From positions 1-64,000 of the IMG/VR virus record IMGVR_UViG_3300014205_009256: a stretch of DNA of 64,000 nucleotides, one strand, 5' to 3'. This stretch comes from a virus (taxonomy: Duplodnaviria; Caudoviricetes). A model generated the notes under the pieces. It ran no database searches, was not told the origin of the DNA, and saw only the letters and a list, made by a program, of their open reading frames with translations. The position numbers and the translations under genes were made by a program. This document shows, piece by piece, positions 15,479-54,951 of this stretch. Numbering within the stretch: the stretch's first letter is position 1; the number at the start of each line of letters is the position of its first letter.

Positions 15479-15781
15479 TTAGTTGAGGTACTCGGGCATC
15501 AGCCAGGTCATGGCCATGCGGCCGCTGACGCTGCACGGACGCGCCGGGCCGTTGCGCACCTGCCCGTCGGCGCGGATTTCGGGCAGGCGCTTGTGCGCCT
15601 TGATCCCGATCCGCGCCTCGATCTCGCGGGCCGTCAGGCCGGGGTGGTGCCGGACGACCGCCAGGCACATCTCACGCTGGTGGTGCGCCAGGCCGCAGGC
15701 CCGCAGGTGCCGCCCGGCCAGCGCCGAGGTCGGCGGATCGCAGTTGCGATGGTTGCAGTGATGCTTGCAGTGCATGTTCAT
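15479..15781 (-). CDS. small HTH protein
   Basis: PGLTAREI...KRLPE...G...C.VSG; GGAG RBS. Confidence 0.65.
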   Translation of the reverse strand: MNMHCKHHCNHRNCDPPTSALAGRHLRACGLAHHQREMCLAVVRHHPGLTAREIEARIGIKAHKRLPEIRADGQVRNGPARPCSVSGRMAMTWLMPEYLN

Positions 15782-15842
15782 TGCTCCGTAAAGCTGGTGG
15801 ATCTGTCGTTGACACATCCCGTCGCGCTGGCCAGCGGGGGAA

Positions 15843-15920
15843 AGGCAGGTGCGGGAGTCGAACCCGCCGTTCCGAGGCGAAAGGCTTATGAGGCCCCGCG
15901 CCGGAATGCCCGGCCCTGCC
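15843..15920 (-). tRNA. degenerate tRNA-like element, anticodon CAT
   Basis: Acceptor GGCAGG/CCTGCC, perfect T arm GCGGG-TTCGACT-CCCGC, anticodon loop CTCATAA; weak D arm, 13-nt variable region, no encoded CCA. Confidence 0.6.
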
Positions 15921-15988
15921 AGATGCGCCCGGGGTGGCCGTCGCTGAAGGACTCGCCACAAACCAAGCGGGCGCGGAGAGATGCTTGG

Positions 15989-16861
15989 TTACGCCACGTC
16001 CAGCATGCGGATGCCCTCGTAGCCGGTGGGCCACTCGTCATGCTGACGGCAGGCCAGGAGCCGCCGGATCGCCGCCTCGTTCTCCTGCCTGGCGATGGCC
16101 AGGGTGTCGTCGGTGACGCGCCACACGCCGCAGCGGTACGGCTCCTTCTTCTCCACCGCGATGAGGTGGACCGGCACCATCAGGCCGTCGAGGACCTGGG
16201 CGAGCACCGCCTGGTAGAAGGCCATCTGCTTGTGGTAGCCGTAGCGCTTCGAGTCGGCCTCGAACCAGGTCAAATCATCGGTGGTCTTGAGGTCGACGAT
16301 GCCGCGATGGGGATGGAGCCAGTCGATGCGAATCTGGCATGGCGTGCCGCAGTACTCAGCGCGGACGACGCCTTCGGAGCGCCCGTAGAGCAGCAGGTCC
16401 ACAGCCTCGTTGTTCATGGCCACGCCGCTGGCCATCTGTTCGATCAGGTCCACCTGGTCGTGGGAGAGCACTGGCTTGCCCTGCGATTCGGCCCAGGCGC
16501 GGAATGCCTGCGTGGTCGCGCCGTAAGGCTTGCCGGTCTGCGGGTTGATCGGTCCGCCCAGGGCGAAGGCGGCCGCGTAGGCATCTCGGCCTTCGAGGAT
16601 GCGCACGTGCGCCGCCCGGCCGATCAGGTAGCTGGCCGAATCGCTGTCGGCCAGCAGCCCGATAGCCTTCTTGCGATGCAGCCAGGGGCACTTGATGAAG
16701 TCCAGCAACTGGTGGCTGCTGAGGAAGCGGTCCGCCTTGGCGTGGTAATCCGCGGCGGATTCGACTTCCAGAATGCTCAGGTCGATGTTGACTTCCATGT
16801 TCTCGCTCACGTTGCTGTTCTCCGTGTCAAGTGCCCCTGGCTCTCTGGCCATATGAGTCAA
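15989..16861 (-). CDS. PD-(D/E)XK exonuclease (RecE/DUF3799-like)
   Basis: IGRAAH, IRIDW...IVDLKTT, Y.Y..QMAFY motifs; true start may be ATG 16798. Confidence 0.85.
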   Translation of the reverse strand: MTHMAREPGALDTENSNVSENMEVNIDLSILEVESAADYHAKADRFLSSHQLLDFIKCPWLHRKKAIGLLADSDSASYLIGRAAHVRILEGRDAYAAAFALGGPINPQTGKPYGATTQAFRAWAESQGKPVLSHDQVDLIEQMASGVAMNNEAVDLLLYGRSEGVVRAEYCGTPCQIRIDWLHPHRGIVDLKTTDDLTWFEADSKRYGYHKQMAFYQAVLAQVLDGLMVPVHLIAVEKKEPYRCGVWRVTDDTLAIARQENEAAIRRLLACRQHDEWPTGYEGIRMLDVA

Positions 16862-17491
16862 TTACCCGGCGCTGGCGGGTTTTGTCGGAGAAGGTTGGCC
16901 GACGTACAGACCCAGCCCCTTCTCCGCGAAGAACGCCCGCAACCGCACCAGGTGGTTCTCGTAGAAAGTGGCCTGCGCCACGCCCATCGCGCGGGCGACG
17001 TGCGAGATAGGAAGGGTCTGCAGCAACTCCGCCGCCCGTCGCAGGTCCGGCGGGAGCTCTTCGAGCACGGCCTGCACGTCAAGGCGCAGGTGAGTGCGCT
17101 CCTCGGCGTTCCGCCGGTACTTGCCCGACCGGATGTCCTGATCGTCCTGGTCGACGGTGTCGAGTCGCTGGACAGGCGTCTCGCCGTCGCCGGCGGCGAT
17201 GTCCTCGTTGAGCGAGCAGTCCTCACGCCGATAGTCCCGCACGTCCGACTCGCGGTAGCGGACCAGGTTCTGGCCCTTGCGGTCGATGACGCAGGTGACG
17301 AACAGCTTGAAGCTGGACCTGCTGGAGTCGTACTTCTTCAGGCGTTCCAGCAGGTCCACGAGCATCGCCTGCCGGATGTCCTCGAAGTCGTCGGCGGTGA
17401 AGCCAGCCTTGCCGACCAGTTCCGCCGCCTTGATGTTGACCATGTCCAATGCGAAATCCTCGAAATCATGAAGAAGCTTGTTGGTGTCCAC
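16862..17491 (-). CDS. sigma-70/ECF-like protein
   Basis: Region-2-like D.EDI.Q...DL......YD..R..F; C-terminal region-4-like HTH; paralog at 54202. Confidence 0.75.
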   Translation of the reverse strand: MDTNKLLHDFEDFALDMVNIKAAELVGKAGFTADDFEDIRQAMLVDLLERLKKYDSSRSSFKLFVTCVIDRKGQNLVRYRESDVRDYRREDCSLNEDIAAGDGETPVQRLDTVDQDDQDIRSGKYRRNAEERTHLRLDVQAVLEELPPDLRRAAELLQTLPISHVARAMGVAQATFYENHLVRLRAFFAEKGLGLYVGQPSPTKPASAG

Positions 17492-17671
17492 TGGGGACCT
17501 CCCGTTGGCCGGGAGGCGTCGCGTGGATGCCGACAGAGGCTGCGATCACTTGCGCTGGAGGCGTTGCAGGATTGCCGCTTCTGCGGCACCCACAACGCCT
17601 CCACTAAGTGGCCGGTTAGTTGTCAGGTACTCGGATACGTTTCGATCACATGGATGGGCCGCCAGCCCCGA

Positions 17672-18001
17672 TCAGGCGCACACCTCCTCCAGGGTCATCC
17701 GGAACGGAAGACCGCGCTGAATCTCGATGCACGGGACCACGCCGTCGCCCAGCGCCTCCAACTGGGCCAGCAGGTCGCGGACTTGGGCCTTGAGCGCGAA
17801 GTCGGCCTTCGCCGACTCCGCACGCGGCCCGTTCTCCCCGCCGAACTTGATCTCACGGATGATGCGCGGGCGCGGATCGAGCACCGGCTGGCCGGCGCGG
17901 ACGACCAGGCCTTCGATGCGGCCGTAGTTCACCCACTGCATCAGTTCGATAAGCTTCCGCTGAGGGGGAGTCGCGCCGTCTTTCCAACCAGGAGCAACCA
18001 T
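17672..18001 (-). CDS. conserved hypothetical protein (GGENGPRAE motif)
   Basis: Paralog of 53710..54029; first gene of the replication operon. Confidence 0.75.
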   Translation of the reverse strand: MVAPGWKDGATPPQRKLIELMQWVNYGRIEGLVVRAGQPVLDPRPRIIREIKFGGENGPRAESAKADFALKAQVRDLLAQLEALGDGVVPCIEIQRGLPFRMTLEEVCA

Positions 18002-18109
18002 CGTTACTGTCCTTTCCGCGGGTTGGCAGGGGTGAGCACCACGCCCGCCCGTGCAACCGCGATGGGGGCAGTAAAAGGGATGGATTTCCGGCGCAACGAT
18101 CGCGCAACG

Positions 18110-18145
18110 AAAAAAGCGGCTCAGAAATGCTCGTTCTGAGCCGCT
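18110..18145 (-). terminator. rho-independent terminator
   Basis: Perfect 12-bp IR agcggctcagaa (18115-18126) / ttctgagccgct (18134-18145) followed by a T run on the minus strand. Confidence 0.75.
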
Positions 18146-18195
18146 GTCGCGGGGAAACACGCTGAAAATTCTTCAGAAACCCGTGTGGCGCAACT

Positions 18196-20385
18196 TCAAA
18201 CTTTCACGTTGCGCTGCTTTGGGGTGCGGATTTCGGTCGTGATCGCATCCATGATCTGGAGCACCTCGTCGTTGGCCAGCCCCTTGGCCTTGGTGATCCA
18301 CGCCTTGTAGCTGTCCACCTTCACGCGACACGCCCGTCCAGACTCGCCGTTAGACTCGATTTCACCGGCCTGCACAGCTCTGGAAATCGTGCCCTTGTCT
18401 GGTGATTCCTCTTTGCCCAGGACACGCTGTGTGGCACGCAGGACTTGCGCCTGCGTGGCCCAGGCAAATGCATCGCCAACTGGCCGCTCGACTACGGTGA
18501 CCGGCACGCGTACCTGTCGTTCCATCCCGTACTTGACGAACCGCACATCCAGCGTGGCGGGAGCCCCGGGCACGGAGAAGGGAGCGCTCGTGCCGGGGCA
18601 CAGATCGACTTGGCCCGAGGCCTCCGATGCGTCAAACAGGGTTCCCGAGGGGGCAGCGCACAGGCCGCGCGCGATCCCAATGCCCTCGTTGCGGATCGTC
18701 ACCGTACCATTCTCACGAGTCGCCACCAGGTACGGCCACAGAGGCAGCCCGAACTGCTTGAGCATCGCATCGTCCAACGCGGCAGCGTCGGCCACGGTTG
18801 ATTTGAGCACCTTGCCTCCATCCCCGACCGAGGAGGGCACTCGTCCCTCGGTTAGGAGCCGCAACGCCGCAGGCATGCCGGTAAGATTCGACGGCAAGGT
18901 CTTCGCGGCCGCCATGCACCAGTTGAGTTTGCCAAGAAGTTCATCGCACGAACCCTTTGTGGCCTTCAAGCGTTCGTGTAGGACGCCCACTAATTTCCAC
19001 AGGATGGCGGCGAAGCAGTCCGGCGACAAATCCTTCGGCTTCCAGCGGAGGCTATAGACCCTCACCTCATCACCGCCGGGATCGACGTCCCATGACTCAA
19101 GTTCATGGTCGATGGCCCAGGCAAGAATCGCCGTTTCAGCGCACGGCCGGCTCGGGGCATCGATGAGCTGCACCCGCTCCACCAGCGCCTCTGCCACAAC
19201 GCCCCCGAGTTGCAGTGTCTGCGCGTCGGCCCGACAAGCGTCAAGGAGCGCCGCCGATTCCCTGGGGCTGCGGGCGATCAGTTCGCCAACCCGCATCTTG
19301 ACATCGTCGGTAATGCCCACTGTGGGAAGAAGCTGGTTCAGGGCGCGCAGGTGCGGCTGCCACTTGTTCCACGGCTCGCCCAGGTTAAGCGCGTCGAAGA
19401 ATTGCTGGCGCGCCGCAGTGCTGAGCATCACGTCGCGGAACGGCGTCAAATCAACGTTGTCGGGGAACAAACCCAAATCGACATCCAGTTCATCCAGAGA
19501 GCGCGGCGTATGGGTGTAGTAGTCCGCGTCCAGAATCGCGCCCTCGGCCGTGTCCACCAACCGGTAGAACACGCGGGCTTGTTCCTCCGCCGTTTTGGGC
19601 TCGGTTTTGTAACTGATCTTGGGAAACCGCAGCCGCAGCGATCCGCTCAACCCGCGGATGAAGAACCGCACCTGGATGGGGTAGTTCAGGCAGCCGTCCC
19701 GCACCTCGATGTCCGAGTCAAAGGACTCGATCCGCGCCTCCGGATCAACCTGAATCTCGCGTAGGCGATCCGCCTGCGGGTCGATGTACTGGCGGCTCTG
19801 GAAAAGCGCGTGGTCGATGCTCCGGTATTCCTGCCCCGAGGGATCGGCGAAACGCAGCATGTACAGCCGATCGACGAAGCGGTCGAAGCACAGCTTGCGG
19901 AGCTTGGCCAGATCGAACTCGCGCTTGGTCACGGCGTCTTTGGGAACATGCAGAAACGCTGCGTTGAAGTCGTTGAGCCGCTCATCCGTGATCCGCCGCC
20001 CGCCTCCGGTCGCCTTGAACCGCAGCAGTCCGTTCTCATCCCGCGCATAATGAACGCTGACCGTATCAACGATCACGTCCTGCCAGGCGAACCACAAGGG
20101 CCGGCGATTGTCGTAGTCATATGCCCGAACCGACAACTCATCCTGTAGCCCCAGCACCACGTGCAAGGCATCGGTCGCGGTCGACTTTGTCCAGGCGAAG
20201 ACGCCGAAGCGTATCTGCGGCGTCAGCCACGCAGATTCCAGGCCCGCGCGAAGCGCGGGGTAATCGAATGGGACGTTCGTCTGGTACGACTGGATGGTGA
20301 TTTCACGCTGGTCGAGGATGCCGTCGGCGCGCGGCGGAGTTGCCAGGTGCTGAATGTGGTCCCGAGGTTCGTATGAAGCCGCCAT
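18196..20385 (-). CDS. 729-aa protein: unknown N-terminal region plus C-terminal wHTH-like domain (C1)
   Basis: Last ~85 aa homologous to the C-terminus of 20499..21467. Confidence 0.8.
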   Translation of the reverse strand: MAASYEPRDHIQHLATPPRADGILDQREITIQSYQTNVPFDYPALRAGLESAWLTPQIRFGVFAWTKSTATDALHVVLGLQDELSVRAYDYDNRRPLWFAWQDVIVDTVSVHYARDENGLLRFKATGGGRRITDERLNDFNAAFLHVPKDAVTKREFDLAKLRKLCFDRFVDRLYMLRFADPSGQEYRSIDHALFQSRQYIDPQADRLREIQVDPEARIESFDSDIEVRDGCLNYPIQVRFFIRGLSGSLRLRFPKISYKTEPKTAEEQARVFYRLVDTAEGAILDADYYTHTPRSLDELDVDLGLFPDNVDLTPFRDVMLSTAARQQFFDALNLGEPWNKWQPHLRALNQLLPTVGITDDVKMRVGELIARSPRESAALLDACRADAQTLQLGGVVAEALVERVQLIDAPSRPCAETAILAWAIDHELESWDVDPGGDEVRVYSLRWKPKDLSPDCFAAILWKLVGVLHERLKATKGSCDELLGKLNWCMAAAKTLPSNLTGMPAALRLLTEGRVPSSVGDGGKVLKSTVADAAALDDAMLKQFGLPLWPYLVATRENGTVTIRNEGIGIARGLCAAPSGTLFDASEASGQVDLCPGTSAPFSVPGAPATLDVRFVKYGMERQVRVPVTVVERPVGDAFAWATQAQVLRATQRVLGKEESPDKGTISRAVQAGEIESNGESGRACRVKVDSYKAWITKAKGLANDEVLQIMDAITTEIRTPKQRNVKV

Positions 20386-22334: not shown

Positions 22335-22694
22335 TCAACCTTCCTTCTCCTTGAGCTTCCTGGCCTTGTCCACCAGTTGCCGCAACTGCTCGGCCGTGAG
22401 ACCGCTGGCCTCACGCAGCAGCTCTGGCATCTGCGTGGGCTGTTTCTGGATGATCTTCGGCAGGTCCTCGGGCACGCGGCCCGCCAGCGCGATCAGTTCA
22501 TCCGCATTCTCGCCGAGAATCTCGGCCATCTTCTTGACCCGCTCTGCGGTCGGCGGGTCGATGTTGCCTTGCTCGACCTGCGAAAGGTAGGTCGGGCTCA
22601 CGCCCACCTGGTCCGCGAACTTCCGCAGGCTGATCCCCTTGGCCATGCGCTTTTCCCGCAGCACGTCGCCGAAGGGTTTCTGTTTGCCGCTCAT
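22335..22694 (-). CDS. XRE-family HTH regulator (ImmR/CapH-like)
   Basis: FGDVLREKR..KGISLRKFA..VGVSPTYLSQVE; adjacent to the ImmA-like gene. Confidence 0.92.
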   Translation of the reverse strand: MSGKQKPFGDVLREKRMAKGISLRKFADQVGVSPTYLSQVEQGNIDPPTAERVKKMAEILGENADELIALAGRVPEDLPKIIQKQPTQMPELLREASGLTAEQLRQLVDKARKLKEKEG

Positions 22695-45664: not shown

Positions 45665-46168
45665 ATGACGATGACTATGAAAAGCGAACTGGCGGCCCTG
45701 GTGCAGATGACGCCGCGTCAGCTCCGCGACAAATACATGGAACTGTTCGGCGAACCCAGCCGGTCGGGCAACAAAGATTTCCTGCGCAAACGACTGGCCT
45801 GGCGGCTGCAATCGCTGGCCGAGGGCACGCTATCTGAGCGGGCACGGCAGCGGGCGGTGGAATTGGCCCATCATGCCGACATTCGTATGACGATGCCACG
45901 TCCGCCGCAGACCACCGCCGGTGCGGCCACAACGACCAAAACCGCCCCGACGCGCCGTGACGAACGTGTGCCCATTCCCGGCACCGAATTGACTCGCGAA
46001 TACAAGGGGCGTTTGATCACCGTCATGGTGCTGGCCAAGGGGTTTGAGTGGGATGGCAAGGTGTACCGGTCCCTCAGCGCCGTGGCCAAGGCGGTGACCG
46101 GGTCGCATTGGAGCGGCCACCTGTTCTTCAACCTGAGCAATGGAGTGTGCGATGTCGAAAAAGCGTAA
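45665..46168 (+). CDS. DUF2924 domain protein
   Basis: LR.KY.ELFGE...L..RLAWRLQ; PGT.L.REYKG; G..Y.SLSAVA..VTG.HWSG..FF. Confidence 0.9.
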   Translation: MTMTMKSELAALVQMTPRQLRDKYMELFGEPSRSGNKDFLRKRLAWRLQSLAEGTLSERARQRAVELAHHADIRMTMPRPPQTTAGAATTTKTAPTRRDERVPIPGTELTREYKGRLITVMVLAKGFEWDGKVYRSLSAVAKAVTGSHWSGHLFFNLSNGVCDVEKA

Positions 46169-47726
46169 CAGTGCGTCCGAGACAGCAACCAAGGCGCAGG
46201 TCCGATGCGCGATTTACACCCGCAAGTCGTCGGAAGAAGGCCTGGAGCAGGATTTCAACTCGCTGGATGCCCAACGCGACAGTGGCGAAGCGTACATCGC
46301 GGCGCAGAAACACGAGGGGTGGGTCTGCCTGCCCGATCGATACGACGATGGCGGTTTCACCGGCGGCAACATGGATCGCCCCGCCGCTCAGCGACTGGTG
46401 AAGGACATTGAAGCCGGCAAGGTGGATTGTGTGATTGTCTATAAGGTAGATCGCCTGTCACGCTCGCTGGCGGACTTCGCCCGGTTGATGGATGTCTTCG
46501 AAAAGCACCATGTCACCTTCGTATCCGTCACCCAGGCCTTCAATACCACCCACAGCATGGGAAGGTTGACCCTTAATATCCTACTCTCGTTCGCGCAGTT
46601 CGAGCGTGAAATCATCTCTGAGCGCACACGCGACAAGATCGCGGGCGCACGGCGTAAGGGGAAATTCGCCGGCGGCAGGCCCATCCTCGGCTACGACATC
46701 GTCCGCACCCCCAGCGGGTCTAAGTTGGTGGTGAACAACGCGGAAGCCAAATGCGTCCGTGAAATCTTCGGGTTGTACCTGCAACATCAGTCACTCATCC
46801 CCACCGTGAAAGAGATGGCCAACCGGGGGTGGACCACCAAGCTGTGGCAGACGAAGAAAGGCCGGTCGGTCGGCGGCCGGGCATTCGACAAGAACCTGCT
46901 GTACCACCTGCTGACCAACGTGGTGTACGTCGGCAAGATACGCCACCACGACCAAGTTTACGCGGGCGAGCATGACGCCATCGTTGATGAGCAGACATGG
47001 CAGCGCGTCCAGTCCATGTTGCAACACAACGGTCGGACAGGTGGGAGCGAACCGAGGAACAAGCATGGTGCGTTGCTGCGGGGCATCCTGCGCTGCGTCC
47101 CCTGCAACTGCTCGATGGTTCATACGTTCACATGCCGCCAGACCAAACGGTATCGGTATTACGTCTGCCTCAAGGCGCAGAAACGCGGCTGGCACACCTG
47201 CCCGACCAAGTCTGTCCCCGCCGGGGAGATTGAAAAGTTCGTCATCGACCAGATCAGGTCGGTCGGACGCGACCCCACCGTGTTGGCAGAGACACTTCGC
47301 CAGGCGAAGGGCCAGAACAGCCGGAATCTGGCCGATCTGCAGGCGCAGGAGCAGGCCCTTCAGCGGGAATTGGGCCAGTGCAACACCTCGCTGAAGAAAC
47401 TCGCCGCTGGCAGCGATGAGCCGACCACAGTGGCGGCGCTGGCGGATGTGCAGGATCGCATGCGCCGCGCCGAACAGCGCCTCACCGAGATTCGCCAGCA
47501 GATCGGGACGCTGAGCGGCGAAGTGGTCGACGAACGTGAGGTCGCCACCGCGTTATCAGTCTTCGACCCGGTGTGGGATACGCTCAGCCCGCGCGAGCAG
47601 GCCCGCATCGTCAACCTGCTGGTCGAGCGGGTCGACTACGACGGCGAAAATGAAACGGTCGCGGTGACCTTCCGCCCCAATGGCATCAAAACGCTTGCGC
47701 AGGAAATTAACGAGGTAGCAGCATGA
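46152..47726 (+). CDS. large serine recombinase (resolvase, recombinase and zinc-ribbon domains)
   Basis: CAIYTRKS, SLDAQ, YKVDRLSRS, CVPC...YYVC...C, coiled coil. Confidence 0.95.
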   Translation: MSKKRNSASETATKAQVRCAIYTRKSSEEGLEQDFNSLDAQRDSGEAYIAAQKHEGWVCLPDRYDDGGFTGGNMDRPAAQRLVKDIEAGKVDCVIVYKVDRLSRSLADFARLMDVFEKHHVTFVSVTQAFNTTHSMGRLTLNILLSFAQFEREIISERTRDKIAGARRKGKFAGGRPILGYDIVRTPSGSKLVVNNAEAKCVREIFGLYLQHQSLIPTVKEMANRGWTTKLWQTKKGRSVGGRAFDKNLLYHLLTNVVYVGKIRHHDQVYAGEHDAIVDEQTWQRVQSMLQHNGRTGGSEPRNKHGALLRGILRCVPCNCSMVHTFTCRQTKRYRYYVCLKAQKRGWHTCPTKSVPAGEIEKFVIDQIRSVGRDPTVLAETLRQAKGQNSRNLADLQAQEQALQRELGQCNTSLKKLAAGSDEPTTVAALADVQDRMRRAEQRLTEIRQQIGTLSGEVVDEREVATALSVFDPVWDTLSPREQARIVNLLVERVDYDGENETVAVTFRPNGIKTLAQEINEVAA

Positions 47727-48151
47727 CCACAACACAAACGAGTCTGACCGTCGAAACCAAGGTTCATTTCACGCAGGCGCGGCGCGGGCGCAAACAAATC
47801 GGCGTTTGCCAAACATCCGACCCGGCACCGGTCGTCGCTGGCCGGGTTCCACGCCTATCCCGGCTCATGGCGCTGGCGATTCGCTTCGACGGCCTGCTGG
47901 CGCGTGGCGAAGTCCGCGATTATGCCGACCTGGCCCGCCTCGGCCACGTCACCCGCGCCCGCGTGACTCAGATCATGAACCTGCTGAATCTTGCGCCGGA
48001 TATCCAGGAGGCGATTCTGTTTCTCCCGCCCATGGGAGCCGGAAAAGACCCAATCAAGGAATGGGAAGTACGGCCGATCGCGGCCACGCCGGTTTGGCGC
48101 AACCAACGAAGGTTCTGGGCAACCCTCCGTGCCCAGTCGCGTCTCGACTGA
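47723..48151 (+). CDS. HTH protein coupled to the recombinase (candidate directionality factor)
   Basis: DLARLGHVTRARVTQIMNLL.LAPDIQE; ATGA overlap with the recombinase. Confidence 0.7.
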   Translation: MTTTQTSLTVETKVHFTQARRGRKQIGVCQTSDPAPVVAGRVPRLSRLMALAIRFDGLLARGEVRDYADLARLGHVTRARVTQIMNLLNLAPDIQEAILFLPPMGAGKDPIKEWEVRPIAATPVWRNQRRFWATLRAQSRLD

Positions 48152-48328: not shown

Positions 48329-51172
48329 ATGTCCAACGAGGATCATGAGCTGCCAGATGACGTGCTGCTGGAAATATGCCGCGTGTCGAGGGACCACACG
48401 GAATTCAGTGACGAATTGCTCGCCGACCTCCGTGCGGTGTCGCGTCTGGTCGGCAAAGGCCCCTCTCCTCAAGGAACTCAACTACCGCATGCGGTGTCGT
48501 TAATGATCGCAGCTGTGGCGAAACTGCCACAGTTCAACCCAAAACACCTGCCCTTCGGTTACGACGGGCCGACCATTCAGTCGCACGGATGGATCGAACG
48601 GGAATCGCTGGAACGATTGGCAAAGCAGATCGCCGGTCTCCGATGGGCCGACACCGAACCTGCTGCCGTGGCCAACGAGGTCGCCAATGCCGTCAGTGAG
48701 GCTGTCAAACTGGGCTTCCTGGATGAGAAGGACTACGACGCGTGGCAGCCCGGCATGGCATCGGGATCGGGTTGGCGGTCGGCCCTTTCCGTTACGGCGT
48801 ACGGCGTGACCAAGGCGCGATCCGCATCCAATGGCAATGGTTCCAAGCAGCAGAAGTCTCCCGCCACCAACAAACCCCAGGTTTTCTACTTGATCTGTTC
48901 TTCGTCCAAGCCACCAACGCTCGGTCAAGGCACGGTGTTCTACAAGACCACCGACGGCACGGTTGCACAATCGCTGTGTCGCCTCTTCGCCAAGGAATAT
49001 GGAGGCAACGGGGCGCAGCATCACTTTGCGGCCGCGCCAGGCGCGGAGGTGTCGTTAGACGATCAGATACTGCTCGATGAAGTCTTGGACGAGCTTGAGA
49101 TATACGAAGATCCAGACCGTGGCGTTTACGATCCGCCGCCGACCCAGGAGACGATGGACCGCGTGCAGTTTGCTCATCGCGCCACCACATGGGAGGCGAT
49201 GATCCAATCGCGGCCGTCGGCCCTCGCCCCCGCCGAGAACGTTAGACCCGGTCCGAGGGTAAGCCCGGAGCCTACAGTCAGTATCACGCCTCCGTTCTCG
49301 GATTCCGAGGAACTGAATGCCGTGTTCGCGGACACCAATCAGTGTCTTCAGGCATTGCGGGCGATTGGCGGTCACTACAACTATCTGACCTCGCTCGAAC
49401 GAGCCGGCAAAGTGCGCGGCTTGAGAGGGCCGGTGGACGGGATGCAGTTCGCGAGCGAGGATGATCGTCGCGCCTGCGACGATGTCGAAAAACAAATCAG
49501 CGCCGCTGTAAAGGTCTTGTGGAAGCCTCTGGCCCGAGTCTTGGCGTGGGGGCGCGACCAGCGGCTGGAGCTCCCTTTCGATGCGGGCGACTTGACCTCG
49601 CAGATACCATGTTCGTGGTGGGATGAGGGTGAGGATCGCGGCTATTACGAATATTACGCATGTACATGTGAGCATTACCAAGGGGCGCTGGATCAGGTAT
49701 CCAAGGCCGTCACCGTCGTGGCGCGAAAAGACTCGGTGGCACACATCGTCATCGAGTCATTTCCACCTGCCCCGCCTGACGCAATAGCCGACGTAACCAT
49801 GTTGACATTGCGTGAACGGCAGATCGTGCTCGATACCCTGAGGAAGGCAACGCCCGACTTCACGGTGGTGTTCAGTGTTCTCTATGAAGCTCACCTCCCG
49901 CCCTCCGACCTGATCCTGTTCCAGCGACAACGTGATTCGCTCCAGGCGCAGTTTCCGGGATGGAGGGTGAGCGGCTGCCAAAGTGAAGACCTCGCCACGT
50001 TCAAGGCGATGTCGAACTCAGAAGACATCATCCAGCGAGTAATCGCCATGCGGGAACCAAACAAAGATGAGCGACAACCCCCTAAGACAACAACCGACGA
50101 CCAGACAACACTGGAATCCGCTCACAGCCATGTCGTCTCATTGCACGCGCATACGAAAATGCCGGATAGACATGCGGCGCAAAATGCTACTTGTGACCAA
50201 GGAATATCTATGGGGATCGGCACATCGCCGTCGCTTGCAAATGAGTACCTCACAGGTGTAGCACGCTGGGCGAATCAGATTGACTCCTCACAATTGCGAT
50301 TAGCATTGCGCGATCGCCTCACAAAAGCCTTGGCCCACGTTTGCCTCGCTATGAGTCTGGTGGATGACCTCGACGCGTTCGAAGAGAGCAGGCCGGAAAC
50401 CGGTTCCCTGATGTGCGAGGACACGACCACTGGCGTTACGGTCTTCTCTGACGATGACTTGCAGAGCCGATACACTGGCTTGGAGAAGGACCTTGTGGCC
50501 AGCGTCTCCAAAGCAAACGCCACCTATCAGATCGTTGCTGCTTCCCGGGATATTCCTGCTACAGCGAAGGATAGCACGGAGTACCTACTGAAGTGGCTTT
50601 TTCATATGAAGCTGGAACGAACTGCTCATCCTGCATCGCCGCGCGATGAATACTGGCACGATGGTGCTGTGACTCCGCCCTGGGGACAATTCTGGGTACT
50701 CGAAATCCGGCTGTTGCTTCGTCTCAGGTTGATCCAGGTTTCCGAGCATCTGATGCACGAGCGTGAGCAACTGAGTAAGCATGAACCGGCGAGTGATCCA
50801 GCCAAAGGGGCCGAGGCGCCCGGTTCCAGCGCCACGCACGTCGATGCGCGTAACGGCGATGGTTTGAAGGATGGCCCGGATCACGCTGAAACGGATTCGC
50901 ATTCTGATACCGAGATCGAACAGCTAGAAACCACGACCCCGCCGCTAAACATGGGGACCGGACAGTGGGTGACCAACAAAGTGGCCGCTACCCTTGAAGG
51001 AATAAAAGCCTCCAGCCTGGCCGACTACCGTAAAACCAGCAAGAAAGGAATCAAGAATCAATCCGGGAGGCTGGGCCGGGATTGCCACGGCAGAATATGG
51101 CGTCGTCCGGGCACGCCGCATGCTCACGTATGGTATTGGAAACAATCCCTTATCGGCTCTAACACGACATAG
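48329..51172 (+). CDS. 947-aa modular protein: N1, M, unique region, C2 wHTH-like domain
   Basis: N1 shared with 20499..21467; M and C2 shared with 51251..53488. Confidence 0.82.
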   Translation: MSNEDHELPDDVLLEICRVSRDHTEFSDELLADLRAVSRLVGKGPSPQGTQLPHAVSLMIAAVAKLPQFNPKHLPFGYDGPTIQSHGWIERESLERLAKQIAGLRWADTEPAAVANEVANAVSEAVKLGFLDEKDYDAWQPGMASGSGWRSALSVTAYGVTKARSASNGNGSKQQKSPATNKPQVFYLICSSSKPPTLGQGTVFYKTTDGTVAQSLCRLFAKEYGGNGAQHHFAAAPGAEVSLDDQILLDEVLDELEIYEDPDRGVYDPPPTQETMDRVQFAHRATTWEAMIQSRPSALAPAENVRPGPRVSPEPTVSITPPFSDSEELNAVFADTNQCLQALRAIGGHYNYLTSLERAGKVRGLRGPVDGMQFASEDDRRACDDVEKQISAAVKVLWKPLARVLAWGRDQRLELPFDAGDLTSQIPCSWWDEGEDRGYYEYYACTCEHYQGALDQVSKAVTVVARKDSVAHIVIESFPPAPPDAIADVTMLTLRERQIVLDTLRKATPDFTVVFSVLYEAHLPPSDLILFQRQRDSLQAQFPGWRVSGCQSEDLATFKAMSNSEDIIQRVIAMREPNKDERQPPKTTTDDQTTLESAHSHVVSLHAHTKMPDRHAAQNATCDQGISMGIGTSPSLANEYLTGVARWANQIDSSQLRLALRDRLTKALAHVCLAMSLVDDLDAFEESRPETGSLMCEDTTTGVTVFSDDDLQSRYTGLEKDLVASVSKANATYQIVAASRDIPATAKDSTEYLLKWLFHMKLERTAHPASPRDEYWHDGAVTPPWGQFWVLEIRLLLRLRLIQVSEHLMHEREQLSKHEPASDPAKGAEAPGSSATHVDARNGDGLKDGPDHAETDSHSDTEIEQLETTTPPLNMGTGQWVTNKVAATLEGIKASSLADYRKTSKKGIKNQSGRLGRDCHGRIWRRPGTPHAHVWYWKQSLIGSNTT

Positions 51173-51250
51173 AAAATCATCGACTCAATACTGGTGATCT
51201 AACACCGCAACGCTCCTTCACATACCGACCTCCAGAACTGGCAGACAAAT

Positions 51251-53488
51251 ATGAGCGGTGAACAAATAGAGACTGTTGATGAGAGACACATGATGGCATT
51301 TCGGGCCGCATGCCGATCGTTGATGGATGGTCTGAAACAACGTGCTGACGCATATTGCATGTTCGGCACGCCTTGCGATTGGTTTCGTACTCAAAGGAAC
51401 TATCGCGTATTTGAAATCCGGGCGCACGTCGGCGGGGACAATCACTTGGTCGAATGTGTGAAGCCTCTCATGACGGAGCTTGAGGAACTGGAGAAACAAC
51501 TAGAGTCTTGGCGCGACTATGAGGCTCAATTGCGCCGCGCAGCAACGGTAACGGTGACCAGAGAAAAGGGATGTTACATCGGGGGCTCCGATCTTCCTCC
51601 CGATGTTTGGAATGCTTTCACATATCAACTTGAGGGCGAGCCAGCCATCACAAACTATTCCACTTGGGTCGAACATGAATCGCATTCCCTCCGAAGTTGT
51701 ATCATCGAGAAGGACTGCAGAAGCCATGTACTCCACGACGATTTTATTGAGTATCTTTCGACATGGCTTGGCGACGCAGATTCTTCGGCCACAGACAATA
51801 GCAAATCAGAAGGTTCAGGCATGTATCTTCATGCGTGCCTGGGCCACAACACAGACTTGTCGACATCCTCGGTATTCTACTTCGTTGATAATCCGTTGAT
51901 TGGTCAATCACTCCAGGAACTATTCCAAAAGGAATACGGAAGCGATGGCAGCAATACCAAATTCTACACAAGCCATGCAAGTAAGCTGAGTGACGCAGAT
52001 CGAATTTTGTTGGATGAAGCCTGCGATATAGTGAGCGTTTACTCTGAGCCGGATCCGGGCGTATATGATCCACCACCTACTCGTTCAATGCATCGTCGGT
52101 CCCAATATGCCGTCCGCGCACGAACTTGGGAAGCGATGTTGAACGCCAAGAAAGCAACGTCTGGGCATAAGGACGTGGGGCATTCAACGCGGAACGGCGT
52201 GGAGAGCGAGGGCCGCGACAATACCACAACACCACACCATGAATCCCAGCAGCCCTCAACCGATGCCAACGCCACAAACAACGAGGCTGGCGTCAGAGAT
52301 GCTATTCAGCAGATGGCGGGCATCTGGGAGAAGTTGAGATTGGCCGCCACAGCACTCATAGGTGCTTCGGAAACGACCTCAGCCGCACCAACGCTGGAAA
52401 TCCAGAAATATCAGGATGCACTAAGTCAAGGAAATGTGTCTTTGGATGGTAGTGGCGAATTTTCGCTTGTTGGACAACACCTTCCACCACATCTTAAAGA
52501 GCATTGTCAGAGTTCGCTCTTGGATCTGCAGCACAAGATGGAGCCATTGACCACACGGCACAACGCGTATCCATTGTGCAAGGACATCACGAAAACAGCT
52601 CGTGAGGCATTGGCCGGATGCATGGCATTAGAAATAGCTTTGGCACTCATCGTGACGAAACCCGGCGAATCGCAGATACCGAAAGAGGAGTGGCGAATAG
52701 CAGGCCACACCGCTTTGATGATTCTTGCGCAAGCATATTACAAGATTCTGGAAAGCGCCATCTCTGGAGCGATGTGTACCTCGCTCGATTTGGAGTTGAA
52801 TCAATCGTATCTATGGACGACGAACAACATCTCGGCACTTCTGCAAGACCATGAAGATCTAAAGGACTTTCCAACCACATTTACACCTATATTCCGCGAC
52901 TTGTATCCATCAACGATTCGAGATTGCGACTGGGAAGACATGGTCGCCCCTGAGGCCGAAGCATTTCTCAGCACAGTGCAGCAATATGTTCTCGGCAAAG
53001 GTGTATATGAACTAACCGAAGGTTCAGCAGGTGGGACTTTCGTCCGCATTTTTCAGTCTTCAGCACAAACCGCAATGGAGCATGCAGAGGCATATCGCAA
53101 GCGAATGCAAACCACATTTCAACGCGTGCTTGATCGTGCCGCTCAACAGCAGCTTGCGGTGCCGGCGTCGGGTCATGATGAACGTCGGTCAGATTCACAG
53201 CATGAGATCGAGACATTGGCAAGTACGACTCCGGCCCTTAACACAAGCAACGGCCAGTGGATTAGCAATAAAGTGGCTGCAAAGCTAGATGGGGTTACTC
53301 CCGCAAGTCTTACGGACTATCGCAAACCAAGCAAGAATGGCATTAGGGATGCCAACAAAATGCTAGGCTGTGATTGTCACGGGAGAATCTGGCGACGAGC
53401 GGGTACGCCACAAGCTCATGTCTGGTATCTGAGATCCACACTCGTGACAAATCGACAGATAAATCGGGGAAAAACCGGGGATTCCTAG
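51251..53488 (+). CDS. 745-aa modular protein: unique region, M, unique region, C2 wHTH-like domain
   Basis: M (KEYG...ILLDE...GVYDPPPT...TWEAM) and C2 (GQW..NKVAA.L.G...SL.DYRK...DCHGRIWRR.GTP.AHVWY) shared with 48329..51172. Confidence 0.82.
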   Translation: MSGEQIETVDERHMMAFRAACRSLMDGLKQRADAYCMFGTPCDWFRTQRNYRVFEIRAHVGGDNHLVECVKPLMTELEELEKQLESWRDYEAQLRRAATVTVTREKGCYIGGSDLPPDVWNAFTYQLEGEPAITNYSTWVEHESHSLRSCIIEKDCRSHVLHDDFIEYLSTWLGDADSSATDNSKSEGSGMYLHACLGHNTDLSTSSVFYFVDNPLIGQSLQELFQKEYGSDGSNTKFYTSHASKLSDADRILLDEACDIVSVYSEPDPGVYDPPPTRSMHRRSQYAVRARTWEAMLNAKKATSGHKDVGHSTRNGVESEGRDNTTTPHHESQQPSTDANATNNEAGVRDAIQQMAGIWEKLRLAATALIGASETTSAAPTLEIQKYQDALSQGNVSLDGSGEFSLVGQHLPPHLKEHCQSSLLDLQHKMEPLTTRHNAYPLCKDITKTAREALAGCMALEIALALIVTKPGESQIPKEEWRIAGHTALMILAQAYYKILESAISGAMCTSLDLELNQSYLWTTNNISALLQDHEDLKDFPTTFTPIFRDLYPSTIRDCDWEDMVAPEAEAFLSTVQQYVLGKGVYELTEGSAGGTFVRIFQSSAQTAMEHAEAYRKRMQTTFQRVLDRAAQQQLAVPASGHDERRSDSQHEIETLASTTPALNTSNGQWISNKVAAKLDGVTPASLTDYRKPSKNGIRDANKMLGCDCHGRIWRRAGTPQAHVWYLRSTLVTNRQINRGKTGDS

Positions 53489-53495
53489 GAATCCC
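53462..53495. promoter_or_regulatory. perfect 18-bp palindrome plus 11-bp-phased direct repeats, operator candidate
   Basis: gggattcctaggaatccc (53478-53495); aaYcgggga at 53462 and 53473. Confidence 0.5.
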
Positions 53496-53709
53496 TGCTT
53501 CGATTTCGTCAACCATTCGCCGGAGACTGCATGCGGAAGGTAAGCAATGGGCTTGCCTGGACACAACCGCATGGGAGTCTTATCCATGACAACGCAACGA
53601 TTCGAGACCGGCAGGAAAGTCGGGTCTGAAAGAGCACAGACCAAGTTGCTCCCCATATCTTCGGGTTCCGATTCCGTACCACCTGTTCGGATCGGCGGTG
53701 CTGTAAGCA

Positions 53710-54029: not shown

Positions 54030-54201
54030 CTCGGCGTAGCCAAACCACACAGACACAGCGTAACGACCGGTCGTGAAACGAAGGCGTTGCGGGTGTCGCG
54101 GGCAACCGCGAACTCGCAGCGCCTTTTCCATTGCGCGAATTCCCGGCAATCACCGACGACACCCACCAGCGCTTCTCCCCCACGGCCGGGGGAGCAGCAA
54201 C

Positions 54202-54951
54202 ATGAATCAAGAACGAGATGACCGCTTTACACCAGCGGATGCAGAAATCGTCAAACGCAAAGCACGAAACATGTTCGGCCAGCACGGATGGAACAGGCAG
54301 GACGTGGAAGACATCGAGGCGGAACTGATCTTCCACATCTGGAAGCAAAGCCCTCGCCACGATCCGGCACAGGGCCCACGCGAACGGTTCATCAAAAAAA
54401 TCACCAAGAACAAAATGCTCAACCTGATCGAGGCCCGAAAAGCGAAGAAGCGTGACGGTCGGCGCAACGTGCTTCTTGACGACGCCATTGAAGGAGCCGT
54501 CCTCGATGGCCGCAACGATCCAGCCAAGATCGACACGCAGATCGCTGTGCGCGCGGTGATCGCGCAACTGACACCAGAACTGCGTCAGGTGGCTTTGCTC
54601 CGGCAGGAGCACAGCGAACGCGACTTGGAAAAGCTGCTCAACCTCACGCGAGCCCAGGTGCGCACCCGCATCCACCAGTTAGCCAACATTTTCAGAAATT
54701 CTGGCCTCGCGCCAGATTCCGACAACCATTCTCCAACCGAACCCGGTAGTGATTTACAGAGCCCAATACATGATTCAGGAGACCGCTCATGCAAACCACA
54801 ATCACCCGTTTCACATTCGGCAACGCCGTTCCCATGGCCGAAGTCGAGGCGACGTTGCGTTTGTCGTTGCTGGCCATCACCAGCATGTTCGGTGACGACC
54901 GAGTGCGAAGTGAAGTCAGCATCACCGTCGATAGCGAAGAGCGATTTTTGA
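54202..54951 (+). CDS. sigma-70/ECF-like protein (C-terminus overlaps the next gene)
   Basis: D.EDIE.EL.....K...DP..G...F; paralog of 16862..17491; 163-bp overlap with 54789..55094 suggests a lost stop codon. Confidence 0.7.
   Translation: MNQERDDRFTPADAEIVKRKARNMFGQHGWNRQDVEDIEAELIFHIWKQSPRHDPAQGPRERFIKKITKNKMLNLIEARKAKKRDGRRNVLLDDAIEGAVLDGRNDPAKIDTQIAVRAVIAQLTPELRQVALLRQEHSERDLEKLLNLTRAQVRTRIHQLANIFRNSGLAPDSDNHSPTEPGSDLQSPIHDSGDRSCKPQSPVSHSATPFPWPKSRRRCVCRCWPSPACSVTTECEVKSASPSIAKSDF

Follow-up and report, generated by a model that had tools for sequence, protein, structure and literature searches.

Modular proteins with exchangeable C-terminal tails and class-specific DNA boxes as candidate element-specific regulators of temperate phages

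The window analysed here, a 64,000-nucleotide stretch of DNA forming part of the IMG/VR provirus record IMGVR_UViG_3300014205_009256, holds two collinear phage-like elements in opposite orientation. In element 2, two large genes follow each other at positions 48,329 to 53,488, and their products, P0001 and P0002, share some parts with each other and others with a protein of element 1. This raises the question of what such patchwork proteins do, and why their C-terminal ends differ between the two elements. The comparisons described below showed that the type of the C-terminal domain (the tail) is associated with the type of short DNA boxes found at the end of the gene. Judging from the sequences, P0001 and P0002 probably belong to an undescribed family of modular regulators of temperate Planctomycetota phages, and we consider it reasonably likely that they are element-specific transcription regulators gating an early sigma operon, with activation and repression about equally likely.

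Mosaic architecture and the N1 family

The four proteins P0001 and P0002 of element 2 and P0003 and P0005 of element 1 were compared pairwise by BLASTP, and the search between their C-terminal domains, C1 and C2, was taken down to E 1e-2. The data showed an N1 domain common to P0001 (residues 11-181) and P0003 (4-187), with 39% identity over 184 amino acids (aa) and E 4e-41, and an M domain common to P0001 (186-295) and P0002 (191-300; 42% over 110 aa, E 1e-23). The C2 tail is common to P0001 (852-942) and P0002 (642-732; 58% over 91 aa, E 4e-31), and the C1 tail to P0003 (215-318) and P0005 (624-719; 39% over 104 aa, E 8e-20). C1 and C2 did not match each other at E 1e-2, and no further shared segments were found among the four proteins. 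The original prediction, made from the DNA letters alone, had drawn the map as N1-C1, X-C1, N1-M-Y-C2 and Z-M-W-C2, with N1 shared by the 947-aa P0001 and the 322-aa protein of element 1 and with C2 distinct from C1. This map is correct, and each of its shared blocks was reproduced; the sharing of M also stands, but its length is about 110 aa rather than the proposed 90. Element 1 holds two C1 subtypes, C1a, which is 67-72% identical to C1 of other proteins, and C1b, to which C1a is 39% identical.

The same prediction described these genes as lower in GC than the core. This holds for P0002, which has a GC content of 0.49-0.51 in every module and a GC content at third codon positions (GC3) of 0.51 versus 0.76-0.78 in the recombinase and PrimPol genes. 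For P0001 it is true in the form of a gradient, from 0.60 at N1 down to 0.54 at C2 (GC3 0.65), but it is not true of the element 1 pair, P0003 and P0005, where GC is not lowered (0.62-0.64). The composition suggests that the whole P0002 gene and the 3′ part of the P0001 gene were recently acquired. A word-based homologue search with P0002 returned only P0002 itself. Scans of the four proteins, and of isolated tail, M and p160 segments (p160 being the small protein encoded next downstream), against Pfam and PHROG gave nothing above threshold, and no family of either collection was matched by N1, M, W, C1, C2 or p160. Within element 2, the sharpest compositional break is that of P0002.

A profile search of 1.84 billion representative proteins showed that N1 is rare, as it was found in 109 representative clusters. 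The N1-bearing proteins range from 168 to 1158 aa, with N1 either N-terminal or internal, and the module orders among about 100 relatives include N1-M-W-C1, M-N1-C1, M-N1-W-C1 and M-N1-W-gC, so that M stands before or after N1. Their C-terminal ~100 residues fall into at least six mutually unrelated classes, which by eye, from their sequences, resemble DNA-binding domains of the Xis/MerR, MarR, XRE and OmpR types. The N1 genes lie on ten viral contigs and on eleven genome contigs, ten of the latter being named Planctomycetota metagenome-assembled genomes and one being binned as Nitrospira. Their position is the same in all loci: after either a DUF2924-recombinase-phrog_14161 module or an XRE-ImmA pair, and before p160, sigma factor, AAA_24, helicase and PrimPol genes. 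Most loci encode a single N1 protein, and tandem pairs are present only in the two elements of the window and in locus L006, where the X-C1b protein precedes an M-N1-W-C1a protein, in reversed order relative to element 1. A literature search on planctomycete prophages with these features gave nothing relevant; the phage biology of this phylum is almost unexplored.

Two features of the family extend beyond the proteins of the window. The second half of N1, which contains the wing with a nearly invariant DxWxPGMxSGxG motif, is found without the first half at the C-terminal end of Ser/Thr kinases and of one HNH protein (P0090, P0095, P0103, P0104, P0107, P0108 and P0110 have only this half), and by its sequence distribution is therefore an independently mobile small domain. 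The middle module of two N1 proteins longer than 1100 aa, P0041 (with a P0041-like protein at L008:1461-4769) and P0047, is AbiJ_NTD3 (E 1e-50), a module that links the variable region of the N1 family to abortive-infection proteins.

Tail classes and the boxes at the end of the gene

For a comparison of the DNA, the sequences from the regulator stop codon to the next gene were grouped by tail class. All eight C1 loci contain 4-6 copies of G[TC]TGCGC per 460 bp, compared with a background of 0.19. The copies at the stop codon are inverted, while shortly ahead of p160 there are two direct copies at a spacing of exactly 11 bp, and a strong terminator separates the two clusters. The 11-bp phased pair was found in 8/8 C1 loci and in 0/13 others (Fisher p 5e-6, which overstates independence because the loci are related), and the sequence between the boxes was not visibly alignable by eye. 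In element 1, four of the 17 GTTGCGC/GCGCAAC copies of the window fall within 124 bp, two of them 11 bp apart (18091 and 18102), and a strong intrinsic terminator divides the copies into two sides.

A second tail class, gB, is accompanied by a different box, (G/A)(T/C)(C/A)CACCT, which is repeated directly at offsets 0, +10, +33 and +53 from the stop codon in 5/5 gB loci and in 0/16 others (Fisher p 5e-5, to be read with the same reservation about related loci). The gC loci contain inverted repeats of the TGCAGTTGCAG type. The contexts of the gD, gE and OmpR-like classes are represented by one locus each (L024, L008) or none. The only gE locus contains four copies of CCGTGA, and in the only gD locus (L024:4925-4960) direct repeats of GGTCAGGAC straddle the stop codon; as they encode the C-terminal GQD repeats of the protein itself, these candidate boxes are partly coding.

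The array of element 2 consists of two direct AAA(T/C)CGGGGA boxes 11 bp apart (AAATCGGGGAA, then AAACCGGGGAT), which lead into the palindrome GGGATTCCTAGGAATCCC. The latter is a perfect 18-bp palindrome at 53478-53495, straddles the stop codon of P0002, and is unique in the window. Further C2 domains, found only by a search of longer proteins and a metagenome scan, are present in four other database proteins and 17 metagenome loci. No C2 was detected in five genomes with N1 loci, in 401 sampled genomes of the phylum, or in the viral contigs searched. None of the other C2 proteins and loci had N1, M or W, or p160/sigma neighbours (p160 being sought with a hidden Markov model), and some of the C2-only loci adjoin DUF3987 or helicase genes. 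Hence, C2 is common to other element families, confined neither to N1 proteins nor to this phage family. The plan of the array recurs in 12 of 16 other C2 loci, where it starts no more than a few bases from the stop codon with two to three direct CCG-NN-GA(T/A) boxes, spaced at about 12 bp, and an inverted copy comes after them. The core dinucleotide of the box (TC, TA, CG, TG or CC) is uniform inside a locus and variable among loci.

The box type is thus associated with the tail type, and one tail and box type is found with either p160 subtype and with differing heads. Co-variation of the C-domain type with the downstream repeats, which had been proposed beforehand as a test, was positive for C1, gB and C2. 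The exchange can also be located within the proteins. Residues 1-302 of P0001 are 69% identical to a protein of locus L007 and 73% identical to P0011, and beyond this point the sequences are unrelated. P0011 and the L007 protein are in turn 74% identical over ~810 residues, and more than 90% identical just ahead of the break, after which their tails are C1 and gB, respectively. Three related heads (69-74% identical) therefore carry three tail classes, C2, C1 and gB, and in L007 the boxes match the new tail, gB. These breakpoints, together with the several orders and combinations of N1, M, W and C1 among the relatives, bear out the domain shuffling that had been predicted.

Predicted folds and the regulatory junction

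The model of P0003, built with AlphaFold from an alignment of 42 sequences, was confident except for the linker, with a mean predicted local distance difference test score (pLDDT) of 83.7. In this model, residues 40-165 of N1 match the winged helices of VanR, AphA-like, TubR, PadR and MarR proteins with middling Z scores of 6.2-8.0 (Foldseek E 0.1 or worse), and PadR clusters are among the Atlas structure neighbours of N1 at TM scores of 0.37-0.41. A feature search of the Atlas with N1 gave no usable match, and P0001 and P0003 matched no Pfam family, PadR and MarR profiles included, at E up to 0.1. Residues 238-303 of C1 (pLDDT >90) superpose on Xis of mycobacteriophage Pukovnik (4j2n) with a middling Z of 6.0 and a root-mean-square deviation of 2.5 Å over 54/54 Xis residues; the C1 copies did not match HTH_17 or DUF1233 at E up to 10. 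These models make it likely that N1 is a PadR/MarR-like winged helix and that C1 has an Xis-like fold. The two C2 copies matched DUF1233 (putative excisionase) at E 0.032 and 0.098, with 14.3 and 12.7 bits, below the cut-off of 22.

The AlphaFold2 model of P0002 is confident for M (residues 190-300, a small alpha/beta unit) and W (345-640, helical bundles), and of low confidence for Z and C2. An M profile had no match among PDB sequences at E up to 1. Structure matches to the whole 745-aa model were dominated by W, and those to chemoreceptor and histidine-kinase sensors (Z 10-12) fall within the range of any helical bundle and were not taken as homology. No match to HTH_3, HTH_31 or Peptidase_S24 was found in P0001, P0002, P0003 or P0005; in element 1 the part of such a repressor falls to a separate XRE protein beside ImmA.

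The coordinates of the features are collected in Table 1. The gene order of element 2, on the plus strand from ~45.6 kb, is DUF2924, large serine recombinase, phrog_14161 small protein, P0001, P0002, p160, sigma-70-like factor, PrimPol and ParB-methylase. That of element 1, on the minus strand from ~22.7 kb, is XRE helix-turn-helix (HTH), ImmA/IrrE peptidase, P0003, P0005, p160 homologue, sigma-like gene, AAA_24, helicase, PrimPol/DUF3987 and ParB-methylase. Between the elements lies a large defence island with type I restriction-modification (R-M), AIPR, an ABC-3C-like system and a type ISP enzyme. An 848-aa open reading frame at 15593-18139 on the plus strand has no family match, lies antisense to conserved element 1 genes on the minus strand that include the p160 homologue and the sigma-like gene, and probably represents a spurious reading frame in high-GC DNA.

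Table 1. Positions of the regulator genes, candidate boxes and adjoining features in the window
Feature	Position	Strand	Basis
Integration module of element 2 (DUF2924, large serine recombinase, phrog_14161 small protein)	45665-48151	+	Pfam and PHROG matches; syntenic in many loci
P0001, 947 aa (N1 48329-48838, M 48869-49228, Y 49229-50878, C2 50879-51172)	48329-51172	+	Intact open reading frame; boundaries from BLASTP
P0002, 745 aa, without N1 (Z 51251-51805, M 51806-52165, W 52166-53170, C2 53171-53488)	51251-53488	+	Intact open reading frame
Candidate C2 operator array	53462-53497	none	Sequence; plan recurs in other C2 loci
Structured leader, nested hairpin	53519-53592	+	RNA fold -28.1 kcal/mol, z -2.8
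p160, small conserved protein, first gene after P0002	53586-54029	+	Homologues after the regulator in 15 loci
Sigma-70-like factor	54073-54951	+	Weak Sigma70_r2 and r4_2 matches; syntenic in all loci
P0003, N1-C1a protein of element 1, 322 aa	20499-21467	-	BLASTP; AlphaFold2 model, mean pLDDT 83.7
P0005, X-C1b protein of element 1, 729 aa	18196-20385	-	X 59% identical to the L006 partner protein
C1 box cluster of element 1, four GTTGCGC/GCGCAAC copies	18091-18214	none	Flanks intrinsic terminator 18115-18145
XRE-family HTH, element 1	22335-22694	-	HTH_3 E 1e-15
ImmA/IrrE metallopeptidase, element 1, directly upstream of P0003	21569-22330	-	Peptidase_M78 E 6e-9
p160 homologue, element 1	17672-18001	-	

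The boxes sit between the end of the upstream transcription unit, which in element 1 is marked by the strong terminator, and the structured leader of the next gene. In element 2 this leader is folded so that the 3′ arm of the hairpin pairs with the GGGAG ribosome-binding site ahead of p160. Analogous leaders with different stem sequences were found at L025:880-952 (z -5.7) and L007:6235-6300 (z -5.65), compared with z -2.8 in the window. This architecture is common to element 2, unrelated C2 loci and gB loci, and it suggests that the hairpin provides translational gating of the first early gene. That gene, p160, always comes first after the boxes and directly ahead of the sigma factor, hence its product might be an anti-sigma or a co-factor; its GGENGPRxE and HGLP motifs look invariant. 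No consensus sigma-70 promoter was found downstream of the boxes. The promoter-proximal boxes occupy the place of a -35 element, and in the C1 loci TTGCGC lies 17 bp upstream of a conserved TACTNN, a layout that recalls activator-dependent promoters. On the other hand, it is among immunity repressors that specificity most typically diversifies.

In element 1 the N1-family genes are on the same strand as the XRE-ImmA genes, with no terminator seen in between, which makes co-transcription possible. The trio of XRE, ImmA and N1 genes recurs in locus L013 (XRE-ImmA pair at L013:6689-7876; XRE 91% and ImmA 64% identical), where the upstream reading frames did not match the R-M genes of the window. 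Hence, the XRE-ImmA pair is apparently part of the phage element and not of the type I R-M operon, and the N1 proteins probably form a second tier below it. The N1-C1 protein was also considered as an ImmR partner of ImmA, but this was rejected in view of the canonical XRE gene next to ImmA.

Proposed role, alternative explanations and related systems

We infer that the variable HTH or winged-helix tail, C2 here and C1 in element 1, would bind the short array of cognate boxes, which begins at or across the regulator stop codon and would reach over the -35 region upstream of the p160-sigma-replication unit. A regulator bound there would gate the early cascade of the phage. As the tail and its boxes are physically contiguous, they would be transferred jointly, as a single specificity cassette, in recombination events that exchange tails between phages, and two related prophages residing together could thereby obtain mutually insulated control, C1 with GTTGCGC and C2 with CCGGGGATTCC. 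N1, as a PadR-like winged helix with its invariant DxWxPGMxSGxG wing, may serve as a common output or partner-binding module, M, W, X, Y, Z and AbiJ_NTD3 as exchangeable input modules, and the N1-less partner with the same tail (P0002 or P0005) may compete or cooperate at the same boxes.

Several observations weigh against regulation of this kind. The C2 fold lacks a confident model (pLDDT <50), its family matches are only sub-threshold (DUF1233, E 0.03-0.1), and the fold matches of N1 and C1 are at middling Z. Where a canonical XRE/ImmA pair precedes the N1 gene, as in element 1, L013 and L010, the primary lysogeny repressor is probably not an N1 protein, and the place of these proteins in the circuit is therefore uncertain. 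The association of boxes with tails may partly be plain physical linkage, as the first boxes abut the coding end, and the relatedness of the loci inflates the apparent independence in the Fisher tests. Finally, in a simple scan, the palindrome of element 2 and several C2 arrays also resemble small hairpin terminators.

Two winged-helix-like domains in one protein, direct repeats phased at 11-12 bp, and the PrimPol, DUF3987 and helicase genes that follow in N1 loci, as they do in a number of unrelated C2 loci, would also suit replication initiators, in which N1 and the tail would bind iteron-like repeats at an origin ahead of the replication module, as plasmid RepA, RepE and pi proteins do. This explanation is unlikely, since the arrays are short (two to three direct boxes of 7-9 bp and, in addition, inverted copies), no AT-rich unwinding region was seen next to them in the sequence, and the boxes are in promoter position, between the terminator and the structured leader with its start codon. 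The change of DNA-binding class from XRE-like to OmpR-like, and protein sizes of 168 to 1158 aa with sensor-like inserts, would also be unusual for initiators.

The original prediction spoke of a polymorphic regulator or effector system. The co-variation of boxes and tails favours the first part, a regulator with element-specific DNA recognition, but no toxin, enzyme or secretion domain was found that would favour an effector. Polymorphic conflict proteins, acting in defence, anti-defence or superinfection exclusion, would direct their variable modules against rivals or the host and use the tail merely as a tether. Such a function would be in line with the highly variable middle modules, AbiJ_NTD3 in P0041 and P0047 among them, with the foreign composition of P0002, and with the location beside the large defence island. 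We nevertheless regard it as quite improbable, because the four proteins of the window have no Pfam or PHROG match, kinase and HNH domains occur only in the distant proteins that have no more of N1 than its second half, an immunity gene was not seen next to the regulators, the downstream gene being the conserved p160, and the position is fixed at the phage regulatory junction, not in a cargo slot. The box co-variation itself points to sequence-specific DNA recognition.

Another explanation would make these proteins recombination directionality factors (excisionases) of the adjacent large serine recombinase, with an Xis-like tail binding near the att sites. The match of the C1 model to a phage Xis, the weak DUF1233 matches of C2, and the position of the gene after the recombinase operon in element-2-type loci agree with it, but the boxes are internal, beside p160 and away from the element ends, and in element-1-type loci (element 1, L013, L003 and L004) the N1 gene has no adjacent recombinase. 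For many tails the resemblance is to MarR-, XRE- or OmpR-type domains and not to Xis, and directionality factors of serine integrases are known to bind the integrase rather than DNA, so this function is very unlikely. Equally hard to credit is the idea that the gene ends hold nothing but intrinsic terminators and repeats that arose by chance, with shared tails that have no cognate sites there: the element 2 palindrome and the gC inverted repeats do resemble, or were flagged as, hairpin terminators followed by T runs, but the C2 loci also have direct copies, which could not form a hairpin and yet vary in step with the inverted one, the C1 loci have their strong terminator apart from the boxes, between the two clusters, and keep exact 11-bp phasing in 8/8 loci amid diverged sequence, and the gB boxes are direct repeats at fixed offsets. 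None of these four explanations accounts at once for a position fixed on the promoter side and for direct repeats that are specific to each class.

Element-specific transcription regulation could be extended to a programmable sensor-regulator kit of prophages. The exchangeable middle modules, namely the W four-helix bundles, AbiJ_NTD3, X, Y and Z, would sense different cues, possibly including infection by a rival phage, N1 would pass the output to a conserved partner, the N1-less paralogue would compete at the same boxes, and the stop-straddling tail-box cassette would have been selected against cross-talk between co-resident prophages, here with C1 and C2. This extension is speculative and we hold it to be rather doubtful. 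New here are the C2 cassette beyond N1 phages, the co-variation of the core dinucleotide, the sharp head/tail breakpoints, the predicted N1 fold and its stand-alone half-domain, the AbiJ_NTD3 module, and the linkage to XRE/ImmA. The locus offers a natural example of re-assorted regulatory specificity, in which the DNA-binding domain and its boxes would be joined across a stop codon and one crossover would re-address the regulator. If the boxes are bound as predicted, they represent several mutually orthogonal regulator/operator pairs, and the coexistence of two related prophages in one genome without cross-regulation would be explained. The co-variation of boxes and tails supplies candidate protein-DNA pairs that can be tested directly.

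Among known systems, the ImmR/ImmA switches of ICEBs1 and phi105 and the DdrO/IrrE switch likewise combine an XRE HTH protein with an M78 metallopeptidase, a combination that immediately precedes the N1 gene in element 1, L013 and L010; here, however, the N1 proteins are not XRE repressors and follow the pair, and element 2 has no such pair. The excisionase and MerR-type winged helices (HTH_17 and DUF1233; Pukovnik Xis, P2 Cox and 186 Apl) would resemble C1 in fold, going by the middling superposition of its model on Xis described above, and the predicted binding of phased direct repeats would be alike. Some of these proteins also act as transcription regulators. They differ in that the domains described here reach no Pfam threshold, are C-terminal modules of long proteins, and have boxes that are not at att sites. 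Lambda CII and PhoB/OmpR-type activators bind direct repeats that replace the -35 element, as in the pho box and the TTGC-N6-TTGC sites of CII. The two 7-bp C1 boxes with their 11-bp period, and TTGCGC 17 bp from a weak TACTNN, are similar in layout, but there is no sequence relationship and activation at the C1 loci is putative.

The lambdoid immunity regions, with their repressor/Cro genes and operators (imm434, imm21 and imm-lambda), differ from the present loci in the size and domain content of the proteins, as those of the N1 family are large and multi-domain (up to 1158 aa), have no CI-type peptidase domain, and carry tails from several unrelated HTH classes; they are putative regulators, with activation and repression about equally likely. 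The exchange also differs, as here it cuts inside the gene, the C-terminal domain and the boxes moving while the head stays. What the two would have in common is that specificity and cognate operators are exchanged together between related phages, and that the outcome would be mutually insulated control in hosts with several prophages.

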